Source of the DNA: Gammaproteobacteria bacterium
GTDB taxonomy: Bacteria > Pseudomonadota > Gammaproteobacteria > UBA4575
Length of the DNA stretch: 64,000 nucleotides
Direction: 5' to 3'
Assembly (NCBI GenBank): GCA_965222615.1
Contig: CBDCUI010000009.1
Span: 928,001 to 992,000, forward strand
The notes under the pieces are model-generated. The model made no database searches, was not told the origin of the DNA, and saw nothing but the letters and a program-made list of their open reading frames with translations. The number at the start of each line of letters is the position of its first letter. Position 1 is the stretch's first letter. The translations under genes were made by a program, and so were the position numbers. Shown piece after piece: positions 14,208-34,314 of the stretch.

Positions 14208-14217
14208 TACTCGTTAT

Positions 14218-14433
14218 ATGGCTTCGCCATTATTAAACGGTTCGTATCTTCCCTGATGCGGGCTCTCACTCGTGTATCCTTACACTCGCCCGGCGATTTT
14301 GTGAACCTCTGTTCGGCTCCACTCTATCCCCACCAACGTCTTTAAAAAAGAAACTTCACTTTTGGTGAAAGCTTCTTTTCATAAATAGAGAATGGCTTCG
14401 CCATGCTTAACTTGCGACTAATACCCAGTCGCA
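14218..14433. repeat. Two copies of the hairpin+TTAA(C/T)TTGCG-type repeat (14218-14236, 14392-14433) flanking a GC-richer multi-hairpin segment
   Basis: ATGGC-TTC-GCCAT hairpin twice; 14218-14236 is the exact reverse complement of 34296-34314. Confidence 0.7.
14344..14379. terminator. Probable bidirectional intrinsic terminator between the giant ORF and tRNA-Pro
   Basis: AAAAGAAACTTCAC-TTTTG-GTGAAAGCTTCTTTT imperfect stem with A and T tracts, between convergent genes. Confidence 0.5.
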
Positions 14434-14437
14434 TGTG

Positions 14438-14514
14438 TGGTCGGGGTGAGAGGATTTGAACCTCCGACCACCGCAACCCCATTGCGGTGCGCTACCAGGC
14501 TGCGCTACACCCCG
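14438..14514 (-). tRNA. tRNA-Pro(GGG)
   Basis: Reverse complement CGGGGTGTAGCGCAGCCTGGTAGCGCA-CCGCA-ATGGGGT-TGCGG-...GGTTCAAATCC...CCGACCA, 77 nt; usual site after ihfA-merR. Confidence 0.96.
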
Positions 14515-14555
14515 ATATTAGAAAAAACCGAATATGAATTAAATTATAGAGTGAT

Positions 14556-14915
14556 TTATTGACGTTTTAAAACTTGCAGCAAGTCTTCTAGTTCTACGCG
14601 CATCTGATGAACAAGTTGCTGACTTTGATTGTTATCTTCTTTTGCTGAAGATCCAGCGAGCTTAAGTCTCGCACCACCAATAGTGTAGCCTTGCTCATAC
14701 AAGAGACTACGAATTTGGCGAATTAGAATGACATCATGACGTTGGTAATAACGACGGTTGCCACGTCTTTTTACTGGCTTTAATGAAGGGAATTCTTGTT
14801 CCCAATACCGCAACACATGTGGTTTAACCCCACATAACTCACTCACTTCACCAATTGTAAAATAGCGCTTCCCAGGAATCGCCGGCAATTCATTATTGTT
14901 ATTAATTTCCAGCAT
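14556..14915 (-). CDS. MerR-family regulator (ihfA-linked)
   Basis: [25 protein letters not shown]; conserved position after ihfA. Confidence 0.93.
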
Positions 14916-15195
14916 ATGCCTCAACTCTTGCTTTTAATTTTTGCCCAGGACGAAAAGTTACTACACGTCGTGCTGAAATAGGAATCTCTTCTCCAGTTTT
15001 CGGATTTCGGCCAGGTCGTTGATTTTTGTCCCGCAAAATAAAATTCCCAAAACCTGAAAGTTTAACTTCATGGCCTTGCTCCAATGCGAGCCGAACCTCC
15101 TCAAAGAATATTTCGACTAATTCTTTTGCTTCTCGCTTGTTGAGGCCTAACTCCTCAAACAAGTTTTCTGCCATTTCAGCTTTGGTTAGCGCCAT
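14902..15195 (-). CDS. ihfA: Integration host factor alpha
   Basis: [10 protein letters not shown]...[27 protein letters not shown]. Confidence 0.98.
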
Positions 15196-15200
15196 TGCAG

Positions 15201-17588
15201 TTATGTTCTTATTTCCGCTCCAACTTTATTACTAAGTTGAGAAATAATTAATGAGATTGTTTGTTCTATTTCTTTATCCGTAAGGGTGCGTGAAAACTCT
15301 TGCAAAATCAAGCCTAAAGAGACGCTTTTCTTAGAATCTGCTACACCTTTACCCGTATAAATACTGAAAATTTCGATGTTTTGGAGACATGAAATTTCCA
15401 TTTGTTCAATGTTTGTGCAAATTTCTTCGGCACTGATTGTTTCATCAACAATTAAAGTGATATCCCGACGGATCGAAGGGTATTTAGACAAGGACTGAAA
15501 TACAATCTCAGCAGATTCTCCCAGCAAATTATTTAACTGTAATTCAAATAAGAAAATGGGCTGGTCAATATCTAGCTTGGATTGAATACGTGGGTGCAAC
15601 TTACCAATTCGGCCAATAATTTGATTATCTACAATAACTTTAGCAGCTTGGCCAGGATGCAATGCCGGATCATTTAAAATTTCAAAATTAACCTTGCTGG
15701 TTGGCAAGAAAGCTATATCCAAGATTCGTTCTACATCACCCTTTAAGTCATAAAAATCTACTACTCTAGCTTCCTCCGACCATTGCTGCGGGTAATTTAA
15801 ACCTGTCACTAATCCAGCAAGAATCGGTGTTTGTTTTAGCCCCTGCTTAGTCTGCAGAAACTGTAGTCCATGCTCAAAAAATCGAATGCGGGTTTGTTGG
15901 CGATTCAAATTATATTGTGCCGCCTTAATCAAACCTGGCCATATACTGCTGCGCATCACCGCAAGCTCTTGAGAAATCGGATTCGCTAATACTTTAGACT
16001 TATGTTCAGGGTTCAACATGGATTCTATGCCCTGATCGACAAAGCTAAATGAAATGATTTCATGGTAACCAGATGTAACCAAAGCGCGTTTGATCAAAGT
16101 CAGCTTGTCAAAATTTGATGTTGCAGCTTTGTTTTGATAGGAAATATCATTTACTTGACCAGGTATGTTTTCATACCCTACCAGACGCACCACTTCTTCA
16201 ATCAAATCAACATCCATAGTTAAATCAAAACGAAAGCTTGGTGGAATAACTTGCAAACTATTGCCTGTTACTTGTACATCACAGCCTAAGCGCTTTAACA
16301 AATTCTCTACTTCTTCAATTGATATTTTTATACCCAGTAGTGATTCAACTTTAGAATGATCTAGTTTAATTTTGACAGGCCCCGTTACTGCAGCACCATT
16401 TTCTTCAAGAATTACCGGACCCGCCGTACCGCCAACCAATTCAAGTATTAGCTGGGTAGCTCTTTCTATTGCAAGTGGACTTAATTTAGGATCAACTCCA
16501 CGCTCAAAACGATGCGATGAATCCGTATGCAAACCATAGCGTCTTGCTTTACCAGAAATTGTCTCTGGCTTAAACGATGCACTTTCTAAAAAAATATCGG
16601 TAGTTTGATCATCAACTGCAGTACTACTTCCCCCCATAATACCTGCCAGAGCAATAGGTTGTTTTGCATCGGCGATTAGCAAATCATCACTTGCCAGCTC
16701 AACTACTTGACCATCAAGTAACTCTAGTTTTTCAGAGGCATCAGCAAATCGTACTGTGATCCCTTCTTCAAGTTTATTTAAATCAAACGCATGCATGGGT
16801 TGACCCAGTTCTAGCATTACGTAATTGGTTATATCAATGATGGCATTTAAGGACCGCAATCCAGCGCGTCGCAGTTTTTCCTGCATCCACATCGGACTTT
16901 GCGCTGATCCGGAAATACCTTCAATCACTCTACCCACATAGCGTGGACAATCCTGTTCAGTACGGATTGATACTGGAAAAATTGTTTGGCTGACACTATC
17001 TATCACGGCTGCAGGAATCGGGTTGTGTAAAGAAGTATCTAGCAGCGCAGAGACTTCCCTCGCCACGCCTTGAATACTTAAACAATCAGATCGATTTGGG
17101 GTTAAATCGATATCAATGATTGAGTCATCAAGTAAAAGAGCTTCGTACAACTCTGTTCCTAACGGATACTCGTTTGGCAATTCCATAATCCCTTGCGAAG
17201 ATTCAACCAAACCTAATTCCGATGCGGAACACAACATGCCAAAAGATTCAACACCACGTATTGTTTTTGCTTTAATTTTAAAGTTATCTAGAAGAACTGC
17301 ACCAACTTTTGCATAGGCAACTATAAGCCCTTTGCGTACATTAGCAGCACCACAAATTACTTTATGCGTTTCTCCCTGGCCGTCATCCACATCACATACA
17401 TACAATTTTTCAGCATCTGGGTGTTTTTCTGCGCTTAGTACCTTAGCTACCACCACACCTGAAAATTTAAGTGCTGCAGGCTCTACACTATCGACTTCCA
17501 ACCCAGCCATAGTCAAGCTATCTGCTAATTGCTGTGTGTTGACTTTGGGGCTTACCCATTCACGTAACCAGTTTTCACTTACACGCAT
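15201..17588 (-). CDS. pheT: Phenylalanine-tRNA ligase beta subunit
   Basis: [35 protein letters not shown]. Confidence 0.98.
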
Positions 17589-17598
17589 AACCCATACC

Positions 17599-18606
<1,008 letters not shown>

Positions 18607-18657
18607 CTAACTAAAGCTATTTTTGTATGCTTTGAATTATTCATCGATTTTTCAAAC

Positions 18658-18689
18658 AAAAAAGGGAAAGGCATCGCCTCTCCCTTTTT
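18658..18689 (-). terminator. Intrinsic terminator between rplT and pheS
   Basis: Reverse complement AAAAAGGGAGAGGC-GAT-GCCTTTCCCTTTTTT stem-loop with U tract. Confidence 0.75.
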
Positions 18690-18740
18690 AAACTAAATTT
18701 TAATATTTTGCGCTGCAATTAATATGTAACGAATTTATTT

Positions 18741-18859
18741 TGAAGTTCTGATTTGATTTGAGACGAGGCAAAAAATATTGAAAAAGCGGAGTTTACACGT
18801 TAGTAAATGAGTATTTTGAAATATTTTTTAACAAAGTATCAAATCGAATCAGAGCTTCA
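18741..18859. repeat. ~119-bp palindromic MITE-like element
   Basis: 24-bp terminal inverted repeats (TGAAGTTCTGATTTGATTTGAGAC / GTATCAAATCGAATCAGAGCTTCA, 3 mismatches); core GGAGTTTACACGTTAGTAAATGAG. Confidence 0.75.
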
Positions 18860-19219
18860 GGAACTTGATAAGCTGGCTTTTGCTTGTTCTGCAATCTTAC
18901 CAAATGTATCGATGTCGTTAACCGCTAAGTCAGCTAATACCTTGCGATCAATTTCAATAGAGGCCTTGTTCAAACCATTCATTAAACGACTATAGGATAA
19001 ACCAAACTGTCTTGCAGCCGCGTTGATACGTACGATCCATAAAGATCGAAATTGGCGTTTGCGTTGGCGTCGATCACGGTATGCATACTGACCCGCTTTA
19101 ATTACTGCCTGCTTGGCAACACGGTACACATTTTTGCGTGCGCCATAATAGCCTTTGGCCTTTGCACGTACTTTTTTATGCTTAGCATGCGCAACTACTG
19201 ATCGTTTAGCTCTTGGCAT
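18857..19219 (-). CDS. rplT: 50S ribosomal protein L20
   Basis: [34 protein letters not shown]. Confidence 0.98.
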
Positions 19220-19246
19220 TTATTCTCTCCAAATTCTTTTCATTAC

Positions 19247-19444
19247 TTACGCATAGGGAAGCATTTGCTTCACAGACTTATTATCCGATTCTGCAATTAA
19301 AGCACTCGAACGCAACTGTCTTTTACGTTTGGTACTTTTCTTAGTGAGGATATGTCTTCCATGTGATTGAATACGTTTAAAACCACCTTTGGCAGTTTTT
19401 TTAAAACGCTTTGCAGCACCTCGATTAGTCTTTAATTTCGGCAT
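19247..19444 (-). CDS. rpmI: 50S ribosomal protein L35
   Basis: [17 protein letters not shown]...[15 protein letters not shown]. Confidence 0.98.
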
Positions 19445-19455
19445 TAGTATTCCAA

Positions 19456-19977
19456 TTACTTTTTACGTAAAGGTGCAAATACCATAACTAGCTGTCGCCC
19501 TTCAAGTTTTGGTCTTTGCTCTACTTCACCATATTCTTTTAAATCATCTTCTATTCGATCAAGTAATCTAGCACCAAGTTCTTGATGCATCATTTCTCGA
19601 CCTCTAAATCGGATCGTTACTTTGGTTTTATTATTATTCGTTAAAAATTCAATAATCTTTTTTAGTTTTACCTGGTAGTCACTTTCTTCAGTTCCCGGAC
19701 GAAATTTAATTTCTTTAACATGAATTGTTTTTTGTCTTTTGCGCGCTACTTGAGCTTTTTTACTTTGTTCAAACTTAAATTTGCCATAATCCATCACTCG
19801 GCAAACTGGTGGACTGGCATTGGGAACAATTTCTACTAAATCAAGATCAGCATCTATTGCTATTTGTTGAGCTTGATCGATATCTACTACCCCAACATTT
19901 TCTCCATCACTTCCGATCAGGCGTACTTCCCGATCAGTAATTTCTTCATTTAAACGGTTCTCTTTCGCTGCGCTGAT
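19456..19977 (-). CDS. infC: Translation initiation factor IF-3 with non-canonical ATC start
   Basis: Frame stays open upstream of the track ORF (RLNEEIT.REVRLI...[21 protein letters not shown]); GGAGGAATAGGAT precedes ATC at 19977; 174 codons. Confidence 0.93.
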
Positions 19978-20000
19978 ATCCTATTCCTCCAAACAAAAAA

Positions 20001-21911: not shown

Positions 21912-21930
21912 TCTATTTCCTTTGTCAGTG

Positions 21931-21951
21931 GTGACCTATACCAAGGGCCAC
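21931..21951 (-). promoter_or_regulatory. thrS translational operator (tRNA-Thr anticodon-arm mimic)
   Basis: mRNA GUGGCC-C-UUGGUAU-A-GGUCAC just upstream of the SD; GGU Thr-anticodon-like triplet in the loop, same layout as the E. coli thrS operator. Confidence 0.75.
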
Positions 21952-22082
21952 ATGTCAGAATGTCTCTTTTGTTCTAATACGGCATTGCAGTTATTTTTGT
22001 GAAGCTCATTTACCTACTTGTAAACTTCACTTCCTAAAAATTCCCGCGCCTTGTATAGGAACAAACAAACTATTCTGATAAT
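21952..22082. repeat. Second, more degenerate palindromic MITE-like element of the 18741 family, opposite orientation
   Basis: Core GCTCATTTACCTACTTGTAAACTTC is the reverse complement of the (G)AGTTTAC..GTAAATGAG core; imperfect terminal IRs TCAGAAT..TTGTTC / GAACAA..ATTCTGA. Confidence 0.6.
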
Positions 22083-22250: not shown

Positions 22251-23114
22251 TTAACTGCTTGCATGTTGTCGTTCAAATTGTACAGGTGTTAAGTAATTCA
22301 AGTAACTGTGTCTACGCTGTCGATTGTAAAAAATCTCTATATATTCAAAGATACTGCGTTTAGCTTGTTCGCGTGTTTTATACTGACAATGATGAGTCAG
22401 CTCTGTCTTTAGTGTATGAAAGAAACTCTCCATCGCTGCATTATCTAAACAATTGCCTTTACGGCTCATACTACAAGTCATGCGATGGTCTTTCAGTAGT
22501 TGATGATATTCAGAGGTGCGATATTCCATGCCTTGATCCGAGTGAATCAGTAAGTCTCGTTTGCGTGAGCGTTGACTTAAAGCCATCCTAAGCGCATCCA
22601 ACGTTAAGTGTTTATTACGTTTGTCTGACATCGACCAACCAATGATTTTTCTAGAAAATAAATCCATAATCACTGCGACATATAACCAACCGGCCCGAGT
22701 GGGCACATAGGTGTAATCGGATACCCAGCGTTGATTCGTGTGTTGCGCAGAGAAGTCACGTTGCAATTGATTGGTTTCTATATGTTCAAACGTCTTACCT
22801 CGCTTGCTTCGCTCCCATAAACATTTCATGCGCGTCTTTAACCCGGCTTGCTTCATCAAGCGTGCCACACGATGTTTGCCACATGGAACACCTGAGGCGT
22901 TCAGCTCAGCATGAATTCTAGGATAACCGTATGTCTGTCTTGAAGATTGATGAATATCGATAATCAGCTTCAGCAATTGTCGATTGGCTTTAGTACGCGC
23001 ACTCATCGGCCGATCTCGCCATGCATAGTAACCACTCTCAGAGACTTGCAGTGCACGACATATCCAAGCAATTGGATAATCATGGCGATGCTGATGAACC
23101 CACTCAAACTTCAT
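22251..23114 (-). CDS. IS3 OrfB DDE transposase
   Basis: WVSDYTY, IMDLFSRKIIGW, HSDQG, DNAAMESFF.TLK.E. Confidence 0.95.
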   Translation of the reverse strand: MKFEWVHQHRHDYPIAWICRALQVSESGYYAWRDRPMSARTKANRQLLKLIIDIHQSSRQTYGYPRIHAELNASGVPCGKHRVARLMKQAGLKTRMKCLWERSKRGKTFEHIETNQLQRDFSAQHTNQRWVSDYTYVPTRAGWLYVAVIMDLFSRKIIGWSMSDKRNKHLTLDALRMALSQRSRKRDLLIHSDQGMEYRTSEYHQLLKDHRMTCSMSRKGNCLDNAAMESFFHTLKTELTHHCQYKTREQAKRSIFEYIEIFYNRQRRHSYLNYLTPVQFERQHASS

Positions 23115-23407
23115 TCCGATAGCTTGGTGAAGTGGTGGGTCGCTTTTTTTAAAATCTCATTCTCTGCACGCAAACGTTCGTTCTCTTTACGCAGTTTCGT
23201 TAATTGCGCAGCTTCACCACTTTGTTGACCTTTACCAGGAAAGGAATCTTCGCCTTTAATGGCCAATTGCTCTTTCCATTTGTATATTTGATTGACGCGA
23301 ATACCAAGTTCACGCGCCACTTGAGTGACTGATTGGTCACTTTCTTCCGCTAATCGAATCGCTTCTAACTTAAATTCTTTTGTGTATTGACGATATTGTC
23401 GTGGCAT
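23111..23407 (-). CDS. IS3 OrfA (HTH + leucine zipper)
   Basis: YTKEFKLEAI...VARELGI...LRKENERLRAENEILKKA; A7G slippery site near the end. Confidence 0.95.
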   Translation of the reverse strand: MPRQYRQYTKEFKLEAIRLAEESDQSVTQVARELGIRVNQIYKWKEQLAIKGEDSFPGKGQQSGEAAQLTKLRKENERLRAENEILKKATHHFTKLSE

Positions 23408-23890: not shown

Positions 23891-23918
23891 GATGTTGTTT
23901 TAAGGGTATCTATTATGT

Positions 23919-24050
23919 GTAGCTGCGCTACCATTAATTTGCGGGTAATAGCCACCCGCATTGTATAGCTTACGCTATTCTTAATTTGCGTAAGAATATA
24001 TACACGGAATTGCTATGCAATACTCAATCTGCGTGTAGTACCTACACGCA
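23919..24050. repeat. Tandem array of three hairpin+TTAATTTGCG-type units (period 44-46 bp)
   Basis: GTAGC-TGC-GCTAC-CATTAATTTGCG; ATAGC-TTAC-GCTAT-TCTTAATTTGCG; ATTGC-TAT-GCAAT-ACTCAATCTGCG. Confidence 0.7.
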
Positions 24051-24069
24051 AAGGTCCCACACGCAAGGG

Positions 24070-24162
24070 TGGTAGGCGCGATCGGTGAGAACCGTGAGGC
24101 TGCAGGCTAATAAAAAATATTATATCACTCAGGCCTCGCACACTTTACCTCTACCATGTCAA
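24070..24162 (-). repeat. Interrupted duplicate of the tRNA-Val 3' half (att-like site)
   Basis: TGGTAGGCGCGATCGG (24070-24085) and ACCTCTACCATGTCAA (24147-24162) each match the tRNA-Val gene exactly; separated by a 61-bp insert. Confidence 0.85.
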
Positions 24163-24323: not shown

Positions 24324-26105
24324 TTATTTTTGACTAAATTGCGTAGTTAGATAACCACCTAGTTTTTTTACAAAATCCCAGACATCATTTTGCTGCACAT
24401 TATTCTCACGGATATATCGAGCAGCTTCATTTGCCCATGCCCATTTATTCTTTTTCTTTGATGCACTAATACCACATCCTACCAACCATTCTTCAAGTTC
24501 CCCAAATGGGACCATAAATATTCCATGATTTTGAAGTTCCACAAGTAACTTCTCTAACGGATCTTTGATATGTTTAGGTAGAGATAATATTCCACCATCT
24601 TTTAAAGCTCTCATTCCATTTAATGAATTACTTAAGCTGTTAAGCTCTGGTCTGAGTGTTTTATCATTACCTTCACTCCAGTCGTAATTCTGATCAGCTA
24701 ACTCTTTTAGTTTTGCAACTGTTTCTTGTTCACTGATCGTTGGCGGTAGTAACCTTATTTGCTCGCTAATTTCATTTATTCTTTTAATGTAGCCATCCAC
24801 AACTTGTGTATCATCACAGAGACTTTTAAGAATCCGTTTTATTTTCTCTTTATCAACAAGAACATCTAAGTCAGCAATGATTGCAACTGGAATACCAAGA
24901 ACTCGATAAAGTTGGCATGTATCAGCTATCCCTCCCGTTCCACCAACTGTGGCAAAATGTATATCAAAATTATTTTCCGCTCCAACCTTATCCCAAGTGG
25001 CTTGATATACAATTCGATCTCCATCTCCTTCCACGATAGTAACTGCTTGAGAGAAAATACCATCGAGAACTGTTTCTGCTCTAACTGTTGGCTTCTTCAT
25101 AGCATCCATAAGCACATCAGAATCTACGAGTTTTGCATCAAATACATTTGTAACTTTAGAAAGTCTTACTATCTTTAATTTATCAGCAGTTTGGATGACA
25201 CCGCGGAGCACATGACTACTATGTGTCGCAACAAAAGTGGCAGTATCTAAAGATGTTGCATGTTCACCAATAAATTGGCCAAGACTGTAGGCCTGAGGTG
25301 GATGAAGACACATTTCAGGTTCGTCAATTACACATACAGGTCGACGGCCAAGTAAAATTGAAATGCATGTAGCAACATACGATTTCATTCCATCACCTTC
25401 ATCTTCTATTGTCCTAAATTTAGACATCTTTTTTACAGAGTGGCGATCTTCTGCGCTAGGTAATTCATTTTCTTGACCTATGCGCAAACATAAAATACTT
25501 CCTCTAGAAATATCAGACCAAATTGCTTTAGAGAAAGCGCGTTTAATTTCTTTAGTTAAAGATTCGCGAGCCAAGTCATTTAGATGCAATGCATGAAGAT
25601 CTTGTTGTGGTGGTTGTTGCTGATAATCAATATTGTTTACTGATTTAAGAGCTGTTAATCGATTTTCTAGAAATAGAGCAGAAACAAGAAATGGTGAATA
25701 CCAGTTAAGCAACTCATTCCTTCGCTTTCCTCGTGATGGTTGCCTAAAAGTAGTATTCCATTGCTCTGCTTGATTAGACTGGATATTTTGTCCTGGTTGC
25801 CCCATACCTAATAAAGGCGTCTGTGGAATATACTGCTCTTGATCATTATCGTCGAAGAAACTGGATATATGGCCTTCCGCTTTGAGACAACTAATAAATG
25901 GTTGAAGCTCTGGTGCCTCTATTTCTATATCTGTTGCTACAACTAAATCCCTTATTTCACCAGCAACTCGAGCTTTGATATCACGGAGAAGCTGAGTCTT
26001 TCCAGATGAGTTAGAACCAACAATTACTGTCAAACCAGAACAGTCTAATTCTCCCAAGCCAGGTATCACTACTCGTTTAAGTGGTTTGAAATCGTTTAAT
26101 TTCAT
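24324..26105 (-). CDS. OLD-family ABC-ATPase/TOPRIM nuclease (stand-alone)
   Basis: Walker A GSNSSGKT, Walker B VIDEPEMCLHP, H-loop ATHS, TOPRIM IVEGDGD and IADLD. Confidence 0.85.
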   Translation of the reverse strand: MKLNDFKPLKRVVIPGLGELDCSGLTVIVGSNSSGKTQLLRDIKARVAGEIRDLVVATDIEIEAPELQPFISCLKAEGHISSFFDDNDQEQYIPQTPLLGMGQPGQNIQSNQAEQWNTTFRQPSRGKRRNELLNWYSPFLVSALFLENRLTALKSVNNIDYQQQPPQQDLHALHLNDLARESLTKEIKRAFSKAIWSDISRGSILCLRIGQENELPSAEDRHSVKKMSKFRTIEDEGDGMKSYVATCISILLGRRPVCVIDEPEMCLHPPQAYSLGQFIGEHATSLDTATFVATHSSHVLRGVIQTADKLKIVRLSKVTNVFDAKLVDSDVLMDAMKKPTVRAETVLDGIFSQAVTIVEGDGDRIVYQATWDKVGAENNFDIHFATVGGTGGIADTCQLYRVLGIPVAIIADLDVLVDKEKIKRILKSLCDDTQVVDGYIKRINEISEQIRLLPPTISEQETVAKLKELADQNYDWSEGNDKTLRPELNSLSNSLNGMRALKDGGILSLPKHIKDPLEKLLVELQNHGIFMVPFGELEEWLVGCGISASKKKNKWAWANEAARYIRENNVQQNDVWDFVKKLGGYLTTQFSQK

Positions 26106-26395: not shown

Positions 26396-26472
<77 letters not shown>

Positions 26473-26534
26473 ACTAAAGTACAACAAATTATCATAGTTC
26501 CGATTAACGTGGTACCACGAAGCTTCTCTTGAAA

Positions 26535-26735
26535 CCCCATCCAACTTGGTGAGTAACATCGAAAGCAACGGCAGGTAAAACAACCAGGGATGGTTGTTTT
26601 AGACATGTTGCGCCTGGATGGCGTCATCATGCCGACCAACGTTGTTCGCTGTTGCGAACGTATCTGCAGGACAAGTTGGTAGGGTGTCTTTTCTTTTGGT
26701 TCGTTTTCTTTGGACAAGCAAAGAAAATGAACAAC
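26535..26735. repeat. Multi-hairpin intergenic element (MITE- or ncRNA-like)
   Basis: CCAACTTG...CAAGTTGG enclosing AAAACAACC-AGGGAT-GGTTGTTTT, CGCC-TGGAT-GGCG and GTTCGC-TGTT-GCGAAC; followed by TTTTCTTTG-GACAAG-CAAAGAAAA. Confidence 0.55.
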
Positions 26736-26770
26736 TTAACCTGATGAATTCTAATCAATGAACTGAACGT

Positions 26771-27007
26771 TCATTTCTTGCGGGAATCAATTTTATGACT
26801 TTTCATTAATTCAAAAATTCCATATGCAATTATTAGTATCCCAATTAATATTGATATTAGATGAAAAGATCCAAATGCACCTTCCGAAGAAAATTTATCT
26901 CCCCATAGATAGTTCGATTCTCGCCAATTTTCAACTGTAAAATAAATCAAAATAAAACCTATGAAAATAATCACCCAAGGCTTAATCATTACAAAAACTT
27001 CTTTCAC
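26771..27007 (-). CDS. Small hypothetical membrane protein
   Basis: 78-aa ORF with two hydrophobic segments, directly after uvrB. Confidence 0.5.
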   Translation of the reverse strand: MKEVFVMIKPWVIIFIGFILIYFTVENWRESNYLWGDKFSSEGAFGSFHLISILIGILIIAYGIFELMKSHKIDSRKK

Positions 27008-27019
27008 TTTTACTGCGGA

Positions 27020-29050
27020 TTAACTAACTTTCGTCTCCGGCTTACCTAATATTATGTCTTTCAAACGAATAATCTCATCACGAATCTTAGCCGCTTCTTC
27101 AAACTCTAAATTCTTGGCATGTTCATACATTTTTTGTTCTAACTGTTTTACTTTTTTCATGCCATGTTCTGGACTCATTCGTGAGTATTCAATGACATCT
27201 TCTGCCACTTTGGCTCGTGATTTCCCCATGTCATATTCATAAGGTGTTCTTCTTGCACCTTCCATAATATCTGCAACTTTCTTTTTGATTCCTTTAGGTG
27301 TGATGTCGTGTTCTTTGTTGAACGTTATTTGTTTTTCACGACGACGATTGGTTTCTTCAATAGCGCGTTGCATAGAACCTGTGATTTGATCTGCATACAT
27401 GATGGCTTTGCCATTTAGATGGCGCGCGGCACGACCTACCGTTTGTATGAGCGAACGTTCTGAACGTAGAAAACCTTCTTTATCAGCATCTAAGATTGCC
27501 ACCAGTGATACTTCTGGAATATCTAAGCCCTCGCGCAATAAATTAATACCAACTAACACATCAAAATCGGCTTTGCGTAAACCTCGAATAATTTCTACAC
27601 GTTCAACTGTATCGATATCGGAATGCAAATAACGTACTCGCACATTATGGTCAGCCAAATACTCAGTAAGATCTTCTGCCATGCGTTTTGTCAGTGTCGT
27701 GACTAATACCCGTTCACCCAGTGCGACACGGTCATTAATCTCAGAAAGCAGATCATCAACTTGAGAAGTGACAGGACGTACTTCGATTTCTGGATCGACC
27801 AAACCGGTGGGGCGCACTACTTGCTCGGCAACGGCATCCGATTTTTCGGTCTCATAAGGACCCGGAGTTGCCGAGACATAAATCATCTGAGGTGCAAGTG
27901 CCTCAAATTCTTCAAACTTCAAAGGGCGATTATCTAATGCCGAAGGCAAACGAAACCCATATTCAACTAGAGTTTCCTTACGCGAGCGATCACCACGATA
28001 CATGCCACCAAATTGCGGTGCGGATACATGACTTTCATCCATCACCATAAGGGCATTGCTTGGCAAATAATCTAATAAACAAGGTGGAGGTTCGCCTGCA
28101 GCACGTCCTGATAAATAGCGCGAATAATTTTCTATACCGGCACAGTAGCCAATTTCTTGAATCATTTCTAAATCAAAACGCGTGCGTTGTTCCAGACGTT
28201 GTGCCTCGACTAAACGATTTGCGTTATTCAGTTCTTCAAGCCGTTCTTTTAACTCTTCTTTAATTTGCTCAATGGCATTTAATAGAATTTCTCTGGGAGT
28301 TACATAGTGCGTCTTTGGGTAGATCGTCAGTCGTGGAACGCGCCGAATTAGCTCACCTGTTAATGGATCAAAGTAACTTAGATTTTCAATTTCATCGTCA
28401 AACAGCTCTATACGAATACCTTCACGTTCGGATTCTGCCGGGTGCACATCGATGACTTCGCCATGCACTCGAAAGGTGCCACGCCGTAATTCAAAATCAT
28501 TGCGGCTGTATTGCAGTTCGGCCAGTCGTCTTAACAATTTTCGCTGATCTACACGGTCTCCACGATCCAAATGCATCACCATACCGAGGTAGGCTTTGGG
28601 GTCGCCCAGCCCATAAATAGCCGAAACCGTCGCCACAATGATAGTATCTGGTCGTTCAAATAATGCTTTAGTAGCGGATAGACGCATTTGCTCGATGTGA
28701 TCATTTACTGAGGCATCTTTTTCGATAAAGGTATCGCTAGAGGGTACATAGGCCTCGGGCTGGTAATAGTCGTAATACGAAACAAAATACTCCACCGCAT
28801 TACTTGGGAAAAACTCCTTCATCTCTCCATATAATTGGGCAGCTAGAGTTTTATTGGGCGCCAAAATTATGGTTGGTCGCTGCACTTGTTCAATCACGTT
28901 AGCAATTGTGAAAGTCTTGCCCGATCCTGTGACACCTAACAAGGTTTGATGGGCCAGACCATCATTGAGTCCTTCTACTAGTGTTTGAATGGCGGTGGGT
29001 TGGTCTCCTGCCGGTGCAAACTTTGTATTAATTTGAAAATTTTCCACCAT
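27020..29050 (-). CDS. uvrB: Excinuclease ABC subunit B
   Basis: [36 protein letters not shown]-terminal UVR domain; likely start ATG 29050. Confidence 0.98.
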
Positions 29051-29157
29051 ATCTATCTCTTTTTGGCTTATCTCTTTTAGCAAATTCCCGTATGATAGCC
29101 CGCCGCTGTAGAGTAGCCATTATCAAATCATCCAATAACTAACTAGGGAAAACTTCT

Positions 29158-30336
29158 TTGAAAAGTTCATTAGCGGATCGTGTCTCACGCATCAAGCCAT
29201 CTGTCACTTTAGCCATAACTGCTAGAGCAAATCAAATTCGCGCAGACGGCGGTGATATTTTGAATTTGGCGGCTGGCGAACCCGATTTTGACACCCCTGA
29301 ATTTATAAAAGAGGGCGCCCATGCAGCAATGCAAGCGGGTAAAACCAAATATACACCTGTACCGGGCACCGCTACATTAAAGCAAGCAGTTATTGAAAAA
29401 TTCAAGCGAGACAATCAACTCAATTATGAACCAGATGAAGTGATGGTATCCAATGGCGGTAAACAAATATTTTATAATTTATGCCAAGCACTGCTGAATC
29501 AAGGTGATGAAGTATTAATCCCTGCGCCCTATTGGGTATCTTACCCTGATATGGCACTACTAGCTGATGGCAAACCGGTGATCATCCCTAGTAAAAATGA
29601 AAATCGATGCAAAATCACGGCAGATGATTTAGAAAAGCACATTACAGATAAAAGTAAGTTATTTGTAATAAATAGCCCTTCCAATCCATCTGGAATTGCT
29701 TATAGCCATGAGGAGTTAGATCAACTTGGTTCAGTACTTGAGAAACATGATCATGTTTATGTGATAACTGACGATATTTACGAACACATCATGTTCGGTG
29801 GTCAAAAATTTGTAAATATTCTCAATACGACGCCATCATTAAAGGACCGCACTATCATTTTAAATGGTGTTTCTAAAGTCTACTCCATGACCGGATGGCG
29901 AATTGGTTATGCCGCAGGGCCGAGTGATCTTATAAAAGCCATGACCAAGATTCAGTCACAAAGTACCTCAAACCCAAGCTCAATTTCTCAAGCTGCAGCA
30001 GAAGCCGCTTTGACAGGGGACCAAGCGTGCGTAAGTACCATGTGTAAAGCTTTTGAGGAGCGCCATGAGTATATCGTTAAGGCCTTAAACGAAATCGACG
30101 GAATTCACTGCTTATCCTGTGACGGAACTTTTTATTGCTTCCCAAATATTGAAGGCTTGATCAATAGAATTGATGGCGTATCGAATGACGTTGAGTTTGC
30201 TGAATATTTGCTTAATGAAACAGGCATGGCAGTAGTACCTGGGACAGCTTTTGGTTCACCCGGGCACATGCGTATTTCATTTGCCACCAGCATGGATGTA
30301 CTCAAAGAATCAGTTAGTCGCTTTAATAAACTTTAA
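29158..30336 (+). CDS. Class I PLP-dependent (aspartate) aminotransferase
   Basis: GEPDF, NSPSNPSG, DDIY, SKVYSMTGWRIG; divergent from uvrB. Confidence 0.93.
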   Translation: MKSSLADRVSRIKPSVTLAITARANQIRADGGDILNLAAGEPDFDTPEFIKEGAHAAMQAGKTKYTPVPGTATLKQAVIEKFKRDNQLNYEPDEVMVSNGGKQIFYNLCQALLNQGDEVLIPAPYWVSYPDMALLADGKPVIIPSKNENRCKITADDLEKHITDKSKLFVINSPSNPSGIAYSHEELDQLGSVLEKHDHVYVITDDIYEHIMFGGQKFVNILNTTPSLKDRTIILNGVSKVYSMTGWRIGYAAGPSDLIKAMTKIQSQSTSNPSSISQAAAEAALTGDQACVSTMCKAFEERHEYIVKALNEIDGIHCLSCDGTFYCFPNIEGLINRIDGVSNDVEFAEYLLNETGMAVVPGTAFGSPGHMRISFATSMDVLKESVSRFNKL

Positions 30337-30416
30337 CTATAAAAATTCAACACGCGCAAAATCGATCCCAGCACCAACTAGAATCGATTTAGTTATTTCT
30401 AAGAAGTATTGGCTAT

Positions 30417-30806
30417 CTAGCCTTGGCTCGCACGCATGGTAGGTGAACTACCATTAGAAAGGTTTGGCAAAACTTCGCGCTGAACATGTTGTTTAAAACG
30501 TTGAATATCGATACTGTCAGAGATACGTAACATTTTATGCATGCCATCTTCCGACAAAATCATCATATCGATCCAGGGATTTTTAGGGTTTTCTGGTGTA
30601 TCGATACGGTATTTACGTTTTTGCTCATCGCTAAGCTCACGTGTTGCTACGGTAACATTGGGCTTACCTGTGCGTTTATTGATTGCTAAACCAAGACAAC
30701 GACAAATATCCGCCGCAACAAACCACGGCTCACCGGTCTCTTCCTTGACGATCCTTATCTTGTAGCCGCCATAATCAAATAGCGATATATTTCCCACTTG
30801 TGTCAC
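30417..30806 (-). CDS. BRO-N domain protein (phage antirepressor-like)
   Basis: FDY..IRIV...GEPWFVAADICRCLGL...ILSEDGM...FK..V.REVLP. Confidence 0.8.
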   Translation of the reverse strand: MTQVGNISLFDYGGYKIRIVKEETGEPWFVAADICRCLGLAINKRTGKPNVTVATRELSDEQKRKYRIDTPENPKNPWIDMMILSEDGMHKMLRISDSIDIQRFKQHVQREVLPNLSNGSSPTMRASQG

Positions 30807-31100
30807 TCCTTGTTTTCATACACGACACACTGCCGCGCTCGAGGAATATTTATAGTGCGATCAAAGACCTACAGACGATGCTTGCCGCTTATTGGTACTA
30901 TCAGCCAGACGATCTGGAAGCAGATATTTAATTCACCTTAAAATCTGCAACTCATGCCCCAAATCCAGATAGATTAGATTGAGCCTAGCGAAAGCCGAAA
31001 AAAATCGAATTTGGCACTAGTGGTAGAAATTACGAGCCAAGTGGCTAGATATAGATTTGGCTCTAAATTTTCTGATTTTTTGAAAAATCGGCTCTATTTA

Positions 31101-31136
31101 TTGACCGACTTTATGAGGATCGTTACCATCTCCCGC
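31101..31136 (+). promoter_or_regulatory. Sigma70 promoter of tRNA-Asn
   Basis: TTGACC-17 bp-TACCAT followed by a GC-rich discriminator CTCCCGC. Confidence 0.7.
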
Positions 31137-31146
31137 TCCCTTTAAT

Positions 31147-31222
31147 TCCCCGGTAGCTCAGTTGGTAGAGCGGGTGACTGTTAATCACTAGGTCGGCGGT
31201 TCGAGCCCGTCCCGGGGAGCCA
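31147..31222 (+). tRNA. tRNA-Asn(GTT)
   Basis: TCCCCGGTAGCTCAGTTGGTAGAGCG-GGTGA-CTGTTAA-TCACT-AGGTCGGCGGTTCGAGCCCGTCCCGGGGAGCCA, 76 nt. Confidence 0.97.
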
Positions 31223-31617
31223 TAAATTCAATCACTTATCAATTTAGCTAAAGATTGTATTTTCTGTGTAGACATTTTGTAGACACATATTTCCCACTAA
31301 AAATAATATAGATTAATTTTAAATTTGTAGACAATTTTAAGATTAAAATGACAGTCAGAGTGAATTTTTGAATAAAACGTCGATTTGCTACTATTTATAT
31401 GTCGCTATTCATTGAAAACCCCTGTAAGGTGTTTCTAGATTAGAATTTCCTATTCCGACATTCTTCCAGAGTTTCATTTCTCCGCCAGTTTTCGGCAATC
31501 AGTTCTAACTATCGATTCTGTTGATCATATGTCAATGGAGCACTAATACACGTGCAAAAAGATTGAAAACCGGGAATGCGCACAATACAGCTCAAGCATC
31601 GAGCAAGGACTTAAATT

Positions 31618-31872
31618 ATGAAACTATATGTAGGTAATTTGCCTTGGAGTGTTACTGAATCGGATCTAAAAGAACTTTTTAGTGAGGTTGGCGAAGTTGT
31701 CAGTGCCACGCTTATCACTGACCGAAATTCTGGACAATCCCGCGGGTTCGGATTTATAGAAATGGCTAAAGAGGCGGGTCAACAAGCGATTAAAAAATTC
31801 AGCGGGCATGTAATTGACAACCGTGCATTACGTGTTAACGAAGCTATAGAGAAAAAATCTCGTCGCGCCTAG
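31618..31872 (+). CDS. RRM (RNP-1) RNA-binding protein
   Basis: RNP2 LYVGNL, RNP1 RGFGFIEM, LRVNEA. Confidence 0.92.
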   Translation: MKLYVGNLPWSVTESDLKELFSEVGEVVSATLITDRNSGQSRGFGFIEMAKEAGQQAIKKFSGHVIDNRALRVNEAIEKKSRRA

Positions 31873-31906
31873 AGTGGTTTATTAACTTAGGTATGGGCAA
31901 GAGACA

Positions 31907-31934
31907 CTCGAGCGGCATATTTGTGCTGCTCGAG
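31907..31934 (+). terminator. Stem-loop after the RRM gene (terminator or stabiliser)
   Basis: CTCGAGCGGCATATTTGTGCTGCTCGAG inverted repeat; weak U tract. Confidence 0.4.
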
Positions 31935-31966
31935 GTCCTTATGTTTCTTACAAAGGAGTTACTTAA

Positions 31967-32114
31967 ATGACCGAAGAAGACAAAGAAGTTGATGGATCAA
32001 TACAGGATTATATTCCAGCAAAAAATGGTGTATCTCTATAATGGGCACAAATATGACAATCTTAAAGATGCGATGAGCTTTGCCAAATTAGATATGAAAT
32101 CAAATAAAAATTAG
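31967..32114 (+). pseudogene. Small ORF, apparently frameshifted near codon 7
   Basis: AAGGAG SD + ATG 31967; removing one base joins MTEEDK to KLMDQYRIIFQQKMVYLYNGHKYDNLKDAMSFAKLDMKSNKN*. Confidence 0.45.
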
Positions 32115-32147
32115 AAAGTTCTTGAAAGGCATACTAAAGGGGACATT

Positions 32148-32537
32148 ATGGAGCATATCAAAGATATTAAAATCAAAGGACTAGACCCAAAAAGAAAACC
32201 CACGCTTAAAAATAAGAACTATGTAGATATAATTTTTGAGTTATCTCAAAAAGCCCCTCGAGATTGGTGTGCGGATTTCAATGTACTGGCTTCAAAAGAG
32301 AGTCTTAATGCGAAAATTGATCCTAATGAGGGACTCTATGTTGAAACATGGGTGAGAAATATTAACGATATCCCACAAGAACTTGAACTTATTAAACAAC
32401 TAATCATTATCTGTAGTAACTGCTTTATTGAACAGAAACAAGAAGAAGAACTAGCTTGGCAACAATCTGAAAGCACAAAAACCAATAGCCGAAGTGATGA
32501 GTTGGAAACAATACTAGCAAGTCTTTCCTATGACTAA
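32148..32537 (+). CDS. Hypothetical protein
   Basis: 129-aa ORF with AAGGGG SD; stop overlaps the next gene's start. Confidence 0.65.
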   Translation: MEHIKDIKIKGLDPKRKPTLKNKNYVDIIFELSQKAPRDWCADFNVLASKESLNAKIDPNEGLYVETWVRNINDIPQELELIKQLIIICSNCFIEQKQEEELAWQQSESTKTNSRSDELETILASLSYD

Positions 32538-32784
32538 TAATGCCTTGGGAAATTTTCAGCCTTATAGGCTTGTATCAATACAGAACACAGCTCCTCCAGC
32601 CGGTGCATCAGGAAGCAATTGGTACTTTTATGAGATTGCTCAGGGCGCCAATCTCATTCATGGCTATCGGCAAGGAAGTCTGAAGGCTGTAACGATGTTG
32701 GTGGAAGAAAATATTGCGTTGTTAAATCAACGCCAATTAGGAAAACGTGGGAATGACCATTTAAGGCAAAATTCTAAAAAGTAA
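32530..32784 (+). CDS. Hypothetical protein
   Basis: 84-aa ORF overlapping the end of the previous gene. Confidence 0.6.
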   Translation: MTNNALGNFQPYRLVSIQNTAPPAGASGSNWYFYEIAQGANLIHGYRQGSLKAVTMLVEENIALLNQRQLGKRGNDHLRQNSKK

Positions 32785-32831
32785 TTTTGAAACTGACAGC
32801 TTCTATTAAATAACCGTATATGGCCTCCCTC

Positions 32832-33078
32832 ATAATGCAAGTAAAATATTGTTTGGCAAAGCAGGGTCGACTGCACACGTATATTCGGCCTCAATGGTTA
32901 GCATACGTTGATGCTGGGCCATGATGGTGTATTCGCGCGCAAGCTCTCAATCGCTATTACGTACTGTACCGTACACGGACATTCTCGAGTTTCACTTGCA
33001 CCGGTTCAACCGGTTTACCATCTAATAGATTACTTCGCAATCGTGATGTGAATTTCCTTAAGTATCGTTATTTTGTTT
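32832..33078 (-). ncRNA. Probable IS1111 seekRNA/bridge RNA region
   Basis: ~250-nt non-coding segment between the transposase stop and the IR, where IS1111-group elements encode their guide RNA; boundaries not determined. Confidence 0.6.
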
Positions 33079-34113
33079 TTAGGTTACTGCCAACGCAGGA
33101 TCATAATCGGTTCCATTACGTAGCATGGCAAATGCCATGCGTACAGTTTTATTCGCCAGTGCCACCGCGGCCACATTCGTATGTTTTTGCTCTGCAAGAT
33201 TAGTCCCCCAGCGACTTAAACGATCCTCTTTATGTTTGGCTTGCGAGACCACAGCACGTGCTCCATGGATGAGTAAGGTGCGTAGATAGGCATCGCCACG
33301 TTTACTGATGCCGAGTAAATGTTCTTTGTTGCCTGAGCTATGTTGTCTGGGCGTTAACCCTAAAGATGCGGCCATCTGACGACTATTTCTATATTGTTTT
33401 GCATCCCCGACAGTTGCAATCAAAGCGGTGGCTACCATTGGTCCTACGCCACGTAATTGCTGTAACCGGGTTGTTACTTCGTTTTGTTTCGCGAAGTGTT
33501 CGATCGCTTGATCTAATTCTTGTACACGCTGATGTAATCCGATGAAATCATTCCACAGCCCTTGCAATAAAGACCGAAAACAATCCGTTAAACCATTCTC
33601 AGCATCTTCCAACCAAGTGGGAATTGTTTTGCGTAAGGTATGCAGTTGTTGTGGTGCGACCAGGCCGTATTCACTCACCAAGCCGCGTATTTGATTGGCT
33701 TTGGCGGTACGTTGTTGCACTAAAGTACTGCGAACACGATGCATGGCTTGAAGGTCTTGTTGTTCAATGCTCTTCATGGTTACAAATCGCATGTTAGGAC
33801 GACTCATGGCTTCACAGATCGCTTCAGCATCCTTGGCATCATTCTTGTTGCTTTTTACATAGGGCTTTACAAACTGGGGAGCAATGAGTTTTACGACATA
33901 GCCACGTTGTTTTAATATCCGTGCCCAGTGATGCGCACCGCTACAGGCTTCCATCCCAATCTCACAATCCGATTCGGCTGCAGCACACAACGTATCGATC
34001 CACTTACTTCGACTCAAGCGTCGTTTAAAAACACACTTTCCCGTGCGATCTACGCCGTGTAATTGAAAAACATTCTTTGCCAAATCGACACCCATGCGTG
34101 TAACCTTGTTCAT
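33079..34113 (-). CDS. IS110-family (DEDD) transposase/recombinase
   Basis: GVDLAK, GMEACS, KNDAKDAEAI; C-terminal LGLTPRQHSSG, ISKRGDAYLR. Confidence 0.96.
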   Translation of the reverse strand: MNKVTRMGVDLAKNVFQLHGVDRTGKCVFKRRLSRSKWIDTLCAAAESDCEIGMEACSGAHHWARILKQRGYVVKLIAPQFVKPYVKSNKNDAKDAEAICEAMSRPNMRFVTMKSIEQQDLQAMHRVRSTLVQQRTAKANQIRGLVSEYGLVAPQQLHTLRKTIPTWLEDAENGLTDCFRSLLQGLWNDFIGLHQRVQELDQAIEHFAKQNEVTTRLQQLRGVGPMVATALIATVGDAKQYRNSRQMAASLGLTPRQHSSGNKEHLLGISKRGDAYLRTLLIHGARAVVSQAKHKEDRLSRWGTNLAEQKHTNVAAVALANKTVRMAFAMLRNGTDYDPALAVT

Positions 34114-34253
34114 TGTATGGTCTCCTTCTTTTACTGACTGGTTATAATCGCTTCCAGTTTGGGCACATTGCGATGCCGTTTAAAGTAGAGGGAGGCCATA
34201 CCATTGCTATTGGCCGAATGCAGTCATAATTCAAGACAAAACCTGGTGTTATG

Positions 34254-34314
34254 CGCAAATGAATAGTGACGAAGTCACACAACTAGTTTTGCAAATTAAT
34301 AATGGCGAAGCCAT
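34254..34314. repeat. Two more hairpin+TTAATTTGCG-type units, reverse orientation
   Basis: CGCAAATGAATA-GTGAC-GAA-GTCAC and TGCAAATTAATA-ATGGC-GAA-GCCAT. Confidence 0.7.

Follow-up and report, generated by a model that had tools for sequence, protein, structure and literature searches.

Structured repeats that trail genes and regulatory trailers of transfer RNAs (tRNAs) are each known, and several such systems resemble in part the element described here, a repeat of two small hairpins that follows tRNA genes in a genome of the class Gammaproteobacteria (GCA_965222615.1, lineage UBA4575). The repeat was noticed in a stretch of 64,000 nucleotides (positions 928,001 to 992,000 of the forward strand of contig CBDCUI010000009.1), the whole of which we call the window and number from its first letter. 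Among the described systems, integron attC sites keep their structure while their sequence varies, are strand-specific and have breakpoints fixed by their fold. Repetitive extragenic palindromic sequences (REPs), which bear a GTAG head, and bacterial interspersed mosaic elements (BIMEs) are short, often clustered extragenic hairpin repeats whose stems are kept by compensatory change and which lie in 3' untranslated positions, co-oriented with the upstream gene. RtT repeats (RF00391, from the tyrT operon of E. coli) are transcribed with tRNAs and hold tRNA 3' fragments within about 130-180 nt. PMC2817692 describes REPs as short imperfect extragenic palindromes, usually present in more than 100 copies per genome. 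The 3' external transcribed spacer (3'ETS) of leuZ is a tRNA trailer that RNase E, according to PMC5222698, frees by cutting at an AU-rich site, and the freed RNA has the stability needed to act. In Methanopyrus kandleri the palindrome CGTTA(N)9TAACG stands about 10 bp behind roughly half of the tRNA genes, and PMC5217627 gives the authors' guess that it is a 3'-maturation signal.

The repeat compares with each of these systems in part. It is extragenic and palindromic as REPs are, yet the source genome holds 47 copies against the usual figure of more than 100 (PMC2817692). Like RtT it is a tRNA-linked repeat, with a different sequence and fold, and it starts after the CCA; the RtT-like units of this genome finish with a duplicated tRNA 3' end plus CCA, and the repeat follows them as it follows real tRNAs. 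With REPs and BIMEs it shares size, extragenic clustering, compensatory change, 3' placement and, with BIMEs in particular, two hairpins joined by a conserved linker; unlike them it keeps a fixed distance from the CCA, has mostly one orientation, has no near-identical copies and no co-occurring Y1 transposase gene, and lacks the GTAG head. It resembles attC sites in all three of the properties given above, but its consensus has no R''/R' box, no cassettes lie between copies and the copies are tied to tRNA ends; the nearest of six tyrosine recombinase (PF00589) genes is 18 kb away, no search specific for IntI having been made. The leuZ 3'ETS is likewise a trailer, but a single locus with a base-pairing seed, whereas here one module is reused behind many tRNAs in several genera (for leuZ, PMC5222698). 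The palindrome of M. kandleri, lineage-specific and at a fixed distance behind tRNAs, is the nearest analogue in print that we found, though archaeal, of unrelated sequence and a single hairpin with neither second hairpin nor linker (PMC5217627). Full-text literature searches, with subscription journals outside their coverage, returned no report of any element that keeps a constant distance to the CCA, and the combined module appears to be absent from Rfam and from the literature searched. What seems new is one covarying two-hairpin module at a fixed CCA distance behind many tRNAs, in several genera of a barely studied gammaproteobacterial family. We examine here its structure, placement and distribution, which suggest a role in tRNA precursors.

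A two-hairpin module with covarying stems

Read in the sense of the linked tRNA, the repeat is a two-hairpin module of 56 bases (about 56 nt from copy to copy) in the order CCA-CAC, hairpin 2, linker AAAUUAA-NN, hairpin 1. Hairpin 2 has arms UUGCG-NNN and NNN-CGCAA, forming 7-8 bp around a conserved 7-nt loop, GGGUAUU; hairpin 1 has 5 bp and a C(GNA)G triloop. The unit includes the CCA junction, positions 5-7 of its covariance model (CM) being the tRNA CCA. On the opposite strand, the one used in the preliminary description of this DNA, the plan is hairpin 1 (5 bp, TNC loop), NN, TTAATTTGCG, NNN, AATACCC, NNN, CGCA and NGTGTGG, the terminal TGG of which is in many copies the reverse complement of the tRNA CCA. 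An assembly scan for the tail and loop motif (3.10 Mb, 9 contigs, 39% G+C) returned about 32 well-formed copies of one plan, and 30 full copies give the tRNA-sense consensus nGnACCACACTTGCGnGTGGGTATTACnCGCAAATTAAnnATnGCGAAGCnATTCn.

The preliminary description had listed seven copies of hairpin 1 with a 12-nt tail, and all seven are present where it placed them; they are pieces of the longer unit. The second hairpins it reported in three copies (14413-14433, 23940-23960 and 24030-24050) are real, but rather than being optional they belong to the ~56-nt unit. Its two spacings also hold: one copy ends 4 nt from the tRNA-Pro CCA (hairpin 2 ends at 14433, TGG occupies 14438-14440), and a triple array ends 19 nt from the tRNA-Val 3' fragment, whose CCA complement lies at 24070-24072. 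The copies and the tRNA features beside them are as follows.

14218-14242 (partial), 14392-14416, 23919-23943, 23965-23990, 24009-24033, plus strand in the preliminary description: hairpin 1 and tail
34254-34278, 34290-34314, minus strand in the preliminary description: hairpin 1 and tail
14218..14242, minus strand: degenerate partial copy, its hairpin 1 the same as that of the full copy, its linker decayed
14341..14385, minus strand: canonical hairpin and U-run terminator, 12 nt past the tRNA-Pro copy (RNA fold)
14389..14444, minus strand: full copy directly 3' of tRNA-Pro(GGG) (CM 69.4 bits, E 8e-17)
14438..14514, minus strand: tRNA-Pro(GGG) (ARAGORN, Rfam)
23916..23970, minus strand: full copy, third of the array (CM 56.2 bits)
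23963..23991, minus strand: partial copy, linker and hairpin 1 only (nhmmer E = 0.044)
24006..24061, minus strand: full copy, first of the array past the displaced tRNA-Val remnant (CM 61.7 bits)
24070..24162, minus strand: displaced tRNA-Val remnant, with the 3' end and CCA at 24070-24093, an anticodon-arm piece at 24147-24162 and 53 nt between them
26396..26472, minus strand: intact tRNA-Val(GAC) (ARAGORN)
31147-31222, plus strand: tRNA-Asn(GTT) (ARAGORN)
34233..34281, plus strand: long-variant copy with loop, 3' arm, linker and hairpin 1 (CM 25.3 bits, aligned with 7 other long variants)
34289..34314, plus strand: partial copy, linker and hairpin 1 (CM 19 bits, E 0.06)
34341..34389, plus strand: long hairpin AGGTCACATG...ATGTGACCT of a second, degenerate long-variant unit (sequence, alignment)

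The copy behind tRNA-Pro consists of the CCA at 14438-14440, hairpin 2 at 14413-14433 and hairpin 1 at 14392-14404, and RNA folding yields both hairpins. Folding of 14335-14441 on the minus strand gives -31 kcal/mol (z = -4.4), with a third hairpin followed by UUUUUU, and a promoter scan calls a promoter-like site at 14571-14543 at this tRNA. The partial copy 14218..14242 has an nhmmer expectation value (E) of 2.6 and no CM match at E <= 0.1. A 14-nt partial duplicate of the 5' part of the unit (24056-24069) precedes the copy at 24006..24061. In the copy at 34233..34281 the 5' arm of hairpin 2 is replaced by the end of a long hairpin, which is itself cut by the insertion of an IS110-family insertion sequence.

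The stems were evaluated in an alignment of 30 full copies from the source genome, namely 29 of the 31 full-length nhmmer hits plus the window copy 23914-23969, against a structure of 13 pairs (8 in hairpin 2 and 5 in hairpin 1). Paired cells make up 95.4% of 389, compared with 80.4% in shuffled alignments, none of 500 shuffles reaching the observed value; the covariation score is 0.488 as against 0.192 when shuffled, and 7 of the 13 pairs change on both sides. With the partner shifted by 1-3 columns, only 15-48% of cells pair. Hairpin 2 has its outermost pair formed in only about half of the copies. Covariation is strong, and the stems, as had been remarked earlier, differ in sequence yet pair. 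The linker columns A32, A33, T35 and A38 are conserved in at least 90% of the alignment. Among relatives, 91.5% of cells are paired and two-sided changes are seen in 11 of the 13 pairs. The 30 copies never reach 95% identity to one another (maximum 94%, median 71%) although pairing is kept, as befits old copies.

The departures from pairing also point to a strand. In the 12 pairs other than the outermost, one-sided departures are 11 G·U and 0 A·C on the tRNA-sense strand (binomial p ~0.001, with copies that are not independent), and an A·C on that strand is a G·U on the other. Together with the strong covariation, G·U on one strand only bears out the preliminary view of a structure-plus-sequence signal read on one strand.

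Placement behind tRNA genes and distribution in relatives

A covariance model of the unit, R1, was searched against the source genome (G000, whose contigs are cited below as C7, C8 and C9) at E <= 0.1 and gave 47 matches in 3.10 Mb, the 30 training copies among them (best E 7e-19). Eleven lie within 10 nt of a tRNA 3' end called by ARAGORN, a zone that covers 0.2% of the genome; 33 lie within 500 nt of a tRNA gene (1.4% of the genome) and 40 within 3.1 kb (6.5%). Counted as clusters, 21 of 25 are within 3.1 kb of a tRNA gene (binomial 1e-21), which extends to the whole genome the enrichment near tRNAs suspected from the window. The midpoint of a copy falls in a stop-free frame of at least 120 aa in 2 of 47 cases, compared with 87% of random positions. 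Arrays run head-to-tail with few inverted pairs (C7:503272/503326 is one), and within clusters copies are spaced 40-250 nt apart with no open reading frames (ORFs) between them. Three clusters are remote from tRNAs; they occupy convergent intergenic regions in the orientation of the upstream gene. That the repeat is an unnamed one is supported by Rfam: no Rfam 15 family matches any copy. At gathering score only the 3 tRNAs were matched in the whole window; at E <= 1 no match overlapped a copy at 20 loci, and at E <= 10 positions 14150-14450 of the window gave 0 matches.

Strand agrees with that of the nearest tRNA in 38 of the 47 copies. A fixed polarity relative to the linked tRNA had been proposed for all three window tRNAs, and the strands do agree in each case (14389-14444 minus with Pro minus, 23916-24061 minus with Val minus, 34233-34314 plus with Asn plus), but the link to tRNA-Asn is not borne out, since no tRNA-Asn fragment with up to 4 mismatches in 20 nt lies in 31223-36000.

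A CCA or CCA-like triplet, read in sense, precedes every copy. The tRNAs directly followed by the unit are Leu-CAA twice, Leu-TAG, Leu-CAG, Glu, Pro-CGG, Pro-GGG, Thr-CGT, Tyr, Arg-TCT and Met. Other copies follow tRNA 3' fragments or pseudo-tRNAs (C8:474402, C8:831670, C9:723458 and the tRNA-Val remnant of the window), further ones follow RtT-like units ending in a copy of a tRNA 3' end, and the remainder follow other copies in tandem arrays. Within an array of 26 tRNAs, too, copies stand between the genes. The whole 59-nt spacer that separates tRNA-Tyr from tRNA-Gly is taken up by the tRNA-Tyr copy, and farther downstream come tRNA-Thr and an ORF starting MSKEKFERTKPHVNVG, which we take to be the start of EF-Tu (tuf operon); the arrangement recurs in two relatives, and because the spacer belongs to a polycistronic operon, transcription must read through the copy. 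Likewise, the terminator 12 nt past the tRNA-Pro copy places the repeat inside the transcription unit and shows that it is not itself the terminator. A simple scan found a weak terminator within the next 160 nt at 1 of the 11 tRNA-adjacent copies, though that scan missed the tRNA-Pro(GGG) terminator revealed by folding. Position within a tRNA unit, tRNA sense and a fixed CCA distance are therefore all found, as expected of a tRNA precursor trailer or spacer, which is a functional class and not a curated family.

Two other kinds of tRNA-linked element were seen in the source genome. The tRNA array, with about 26 genes, lies outside the window at C7:345976-350286 (locus L006), and three of its tRNAs carry the repeat; within it is a match to GOLLD RNA (RF02032, 155.8 bits against a gathering score of 150, L006:3094-3581, minus strand) with a tRNA inside, and the block looks like the tRNA/GOLLD type of prophages, here in a gammaproteobacterium. 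The RtT-like units give sub-threshold matches to RF00391 (37 and 28.6 bits against 45) at L002:171-309, plus strand (G000:C8:818170-818308), and L013:1255-1400, minus strand. Another was recognized by eye at 14243-14330 of the window, minus strand, where Rfam has no match. Such units stand downstream of Ser, Arg, Lys and Thr tRNAs, start with a sequence like GGTTCGACAAAATCG and end in the last ~19 nt of the tRNA plus CCA.

Among the genomes searched with R1, the repeat occurs in part of one family only. At E <= 0.001, 15 of 36 same-family genomes had matches, and none was obtained in 24 genomes that represent 24 other families of the class; at E <= 1e-6, 26 of 55 other same-family genomes had matches. 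By genus the latter are g7 (12/15), g8 (12/16), g11 (1/1) and g2 (1/1), with none in g3 (0/13), g5 (0/3), g10 (0/2) and g4, g6 and g9 (0/1 each). Copy number among family members ranges from 0 to 47. At 51 loci of relatives, 28 of 65 distinct hits have their start 5-6 nt short of the 3' end of a tRNA on the same strand, and most others follow tRNA 3' fragments or RtT-like units ending in NCCA. The carrier tRNAs of relatives include Met, Leu (CAA, TAA, GAG), His, Lys, Pro, Val(GAC), Tyr, Cys, Phe, Thr, Arg and Asn, and copies recur across genera behind tRNA-Tyr, Val(GAC), Leu(CAA), His, Met and Arg(CCT). The tRNA-Tyr copies share GAC for CAC, and GGC for GGG in the loop, and so are orthologous. 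When species genomes were scanned for the exact pattern, 8 loci turned up in 4 metagenome-assembled genomes whose only label is Gammaproteobacteria or Pseudomonadota, and a scan of metagenome contigs found 3 matches; these are again placed behind tRNA or NCCA ends. The same scan of viral contigs gave 0 matches.

At the tRNA-Pro(GGG) locus beside ihfA the copy is intact in G000, decayed in the relative G007 and missing in G001, G006, G014 and G020, so that the element, though old, can be lost. In G001 (L081, G001:C1:404298-407588) the place of the two-hairpin element is occupied by tandem repeats of ~107 nt, each ending in the tRNA 3' fragment CCCCGACCA.

A proposed role in tRNA precursors and its competitors

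We favour, with a probability of about one half, the reading that the repeat is a lineage-specific module serving the processing or protection of tRNA precursors. An RNA processing signal had been named as an alternative in the preliminary description, and that part of it has become the reading we prefer, with cleavage itself a step that we infer. On the evidence of position and strand, the module would be transcribed with the tRNA as a 3' trailer or an inter-tRNA spacer and would act as RNA on the tRNA-sense strand. Its two hairpins would hold the AU-rich linker AAAUUAA open as an entry site for an RNase E-type endonuclease, because AA|AUU fits the RN|WUU motif, and a cut between columns 33 and 34 would put a conserved U at +2. 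In PMC5222698, RN|WUU with a dominant U at +2 is the RNase E motif, and the enzyme is reported to cut close to tRNA 3' ends and where the leuZ 3'ETS begins. The source genome has 3 matches to the RNase E/G family; RNase E would be the presumed enzyme, and processing or protection the presumed benefit. The hairpins would also block 3'-5' exonucleases, shielding both products on either side of the cut, and in operons would separate neighbouring tRNAs. Most likely, then, the modules punctuate tRNA precursors. In this view the neighbouring islets are ordinary islands in tRNA genes, which displaced the old tRNA 3' part together with its repeats. If this is right, whole tRNA gene sets can share a dedicated 3' punctuation element, which would offer a clean natural substrate for studying endonuclease entry sites presented between hairpins.

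Several observations weigh against a role in tRNA precursors. Only 11 of the 65 tRNAs of the source genome have the unit directly after the CCA, and a stable hairpin 3 nt past the CCA should hinder, not help, exonucleolytic 3' trimming. The repeat is dispensable, since a complete genome of the same genus, G001, has 0 copies (R1, E <= 1e-6), as do 13 of 13 genomes of g3. The G·U asymmetry is weaker in relatives than in the source genome (32 G·U against 15 A·C), a count that is moreover biased because its hits were chosen by a model tolerant of G·U, and it could reflect strand-biased C-to-T mutation in a transcribed region in place of selection on RNA. The 30-copy alignment omits the irregular hits, a long variant at C8:474183 and an inverted copy at C8:497590. 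REP-like repeats more typically show turnover of the kind seen at the tRNA-Pro(GGG) locus. In truncated and nested copies the break falls at the hairpin 2 loop, after the loop GGG in the nested ones, and some copies have hybrid, unmatched arms; in one of these (L063:690-746) the 3' arm is as in the orthologous G007 copy and the 5' arm is new. Breakpoints and hybrid arms hint at recombination at the hairpin 2 loop. Finally, two copies, C7:348598 and C8:497590, are inverted and have duplicated tRNA segments, from T-loop to CCA plus 20-38 nt, as flanks; the second of these copies is kept in two relatives.

The main rival reading is a DNA-level repeat like a REP or BIME, whose folded strand would be read by a transposase or recombinase, or which would spread by gene conversion, with NCCA tRNA ends as preferred target and any effect on RNA secondary. 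The plan, a pair of small extragenic hairpins joined by a conserved linker, resembles that of BIMEs, and a copy number that runs from 0 to 47 in the family and is 0 within the same genus, labile presence at an orthologous locus, tandem arrays containing partial copies, the recurrent loop breakpoints with hybrid arms and the two flanked inverted copies all fit such a repeat; a CCA or CCA-like triplet before every copy is expected of target-specific insertion. We nevertheless consider it unlikely. No gene for a REP-associated tyrosine transposase (RAYT) was found in the source genome, where the single Y1_Tnp match (C8:549505) is 50 kb from the nearest copy. The association with a Y1 or RAYT gene that had been looked for did not emerge among the family genomes G000-G022, in which 3 of the 8 members with the repeat and 2 of the 15 without it have Y1 genes; none was found in G007, G011, G019 or G022, whose copies number 6-30. 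Nor did a link to a tyrosine recombinase emerge, as none of the six PF00589 genes of the source genome lies within 18 kb of any copy cluster. The absence of near-identical copies at unrelated loci (maximum 94%) speaks against a recent burst, copies have mostly one orientation and do not alternate as REPIN-like pairs, and the same tRNAs carry the repeat in different genera. Were the repeat mobile, the tRNA 3' end would be its address, which would bear on tRNA genes as hot spots of genome change.

A narrower form of mobility, which we regard as less likely still, is a non-autonomous, CCA-seeking mini-element that would colonise the position behind the CCA of a tRNA or tRNA-like sequence and recombine at the hairpin 2 loop through an enzyme that reads the folded strand, either of the host or still unrecognised. 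It rests on the CCA or CCA-like triplets, the breaks after the loop GGG, the hybrid arms and the flanked inverted copies, and also on three copies in the prophage-like tRNA array and the patchy presence at orthologous loci. It would be a new kind of target-specific mini-element.

We give slightly less credence again to two further readings, and about equally little to each. The trailer might be excised and act in trans as a member of a small-RNA family whose loop GGGUAUU and linker bind a common protein or RNA partner. The conserved single-stranded loop and linker beside freely covarying stems would suit this, hairpins would stabilise a released fragment, and the leuZ 3'ETS, released by RNase E 15 nt behind its tRNA, is a precedent (PMC5222698). 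However, 47 near-equivalent copies are hard to square with a specific regulator, and the small RRM protein encoded in the tRNA-Asn islet, considered as a partner, was rejected, since RRM_1 occurs in 19 of 22 family genomes, repeat-free ones included, and so does not track the repeat. The other reading is a non-canonical terminator or insulator, in which hairpin 1 with UUAAUUU, on the strand opposite to the tRNA sense, would stop transcription towards the tRNA, or both hairpins would stop the tRNA transcript. A simple scan calls hairpin 1 terminator-like once per orientation, by that scan most of the copies next to tRNAs are not followed by a canonical terminator within 160 nt, and copies remote from tRNAs lie in convergent intergenic regions. 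Hairpin 1, though, has a stem of 5 bp only, and it alone passes a loose scan; an intrinsic terminator would have a G+C-rich hairpin directly before a U-run at the end of the transcription unit, and the consensus has no U-run in tRNA sense. Copies in the Tyr/Gly spacer and within the tRNA array would cut off downstream genes if they stopped transcription, G·U pairs in tRNA sense are A·C mismatches in the 5-bp stem on the opposite strand, and the genome has canonical terminators, one of them right behind the tRNA-Pro copy.

Some other resemblances were considered and set aside. TGCGCATAAT, in copies with a CAT triplet, resembles the XerC arm of dif (XerCD), but the triplet varies freely elsewhere. 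The loop GGGTATTAC recalls a rolling-circle nonanucleotide, but its AC covaries as stem and the breakpoints are elsewhere. Linker and hairpin 1 recall boxA/boxB, with only 7 of 10 bases matching. A promoter reading meets poor hexamers, and no promoter-like site was called in the copies.

The tRNA-Val islet, insertion sequences and neighbouring genes

The tRNA-Val islet spans 2.3 kb (24.1-26.4 kb) between the intact tRNA-Val and its remnant, which forms the outer boundary. The remnant shares with the intact gene an exact 16-nt match in the anticodon arm and GATCGCGCCTACCA, and the repeats begin only past it, outside the islet. An att-type direct repeat, in which a tRNA 3' segment is duplicated at the far end of an island, is thus provided by the remnant and not by the repeat. 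The islet is an ordinary tRNA-integrated island, and the repeats are the former tRNA flank, moved with the displaced 3' part. In annotation, R1 can tell the ancestral flank of a tRNA from an inserted island and thereby marks the boundaries of islands. The lone gene of the islet (24324-26105, minus strand) encodes an OLD-family ATPase/TOPRIM nuclease (AAA_21, OLD-like_TOPRIM) and is likely a defence gene left by a decayed island.

The preliminary proposal that a trans-acting recombinase or HUH enzyme recognises the repeat and assembles integrase-less islets beside tRNAs is very improbable: the tRNA-Val and tRNA-Asn islets do lack an integrase gene, copies do stand at the far edge of the tRNA-Val islet and breakpoints do recur in the hairpin 2 loop, but the islet boundary is the tRNA-Val remnant with the repeats outside it, 11 tRNAs carry the repeat without any islet, genes are not enclosed by copies (of the 47, only 2 overlap long open frames, and cluster spacings are 40-250 nt), and no Y1, integrase or IS110 gene was found to co-occur with the repeat. 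What weighs heavily is that the searches made found neither an islet with the repeat at both ends and crossovers at one and the same base, nor a recombinase whose presence tracks the repeat. The starts of the tRNA-Val and tRNA-Asn islets show weak homology, over the first ~30 nt only.

An IS110-family element interrupts a long variant of the unit. The variant is ~135 nt long, is known from 8 copies, often in tandem, and has a long hairpin in place of the 5' arm of hairpin 2; its parts are a conserved start CTAnnGATGATAGGTC, a covarying AGGTC...GACCT hairpin and then the 3' half of the 56-nt element. It has no match in Rfam. The loci concerned are as follows.

32809..34227, minus strand: IS110-family insertion sequence, 1419 bp, with transposase ORF 33079-34113 (Pfam PF01548/PF02371)
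34233-34440, plus strand: long-variant locus of the window
G000:C8:818357-818700, C9:741295-741750, C8:474183-474300 and C8:499035-499200: long-variant loci elsewhere in the source genome

The element is inserted in the long-variant unit and is not part of the repeat. A second copy, 99.7% identical, lies at C7:813541-814959. IS110 was rejected as an agent or targeter of the repeat, since the flanks of this second copy are unrelated and the insertion is 18 nt inside the long-variant hairpin, not in the repeat core. The element has subterminal inverted repeats GGCCTCCCTC/GAGGGAGGCC, and the source genome has 11 IS110-type transposase matches of three sizes.

Other mobile sequences were noted. 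Between thrS and the repeat array there is an IS3-type element (an HTH_Tnp_1 ORF and an rve ORF; 22251-23407, minus strand). One 50-nt stretch (ATACATTAATGTAT...) is present in three identical copies in the source genome (C7:251044, C8:548452 and C9:660232), one of them being ~1 kb from the sole Y1_Tnp gene, and these copies are probably the ends of an IS200/IS605-type element. Genes for a small RRM_1 RNA-binding protein (31618-31872, plus strand) and a BRO-N domain protein (30417-30806, minus strand) flank tRNA-Asn. Positions 7686-14207 (plus strand) hold an ORF of 2173 aa with galactose/glyoxal-oxidase-like Kelch, He_PIG, PA14, F5/8-C and PKD domains and with cytochrome c / MauG-like motifs at its C-terminus.

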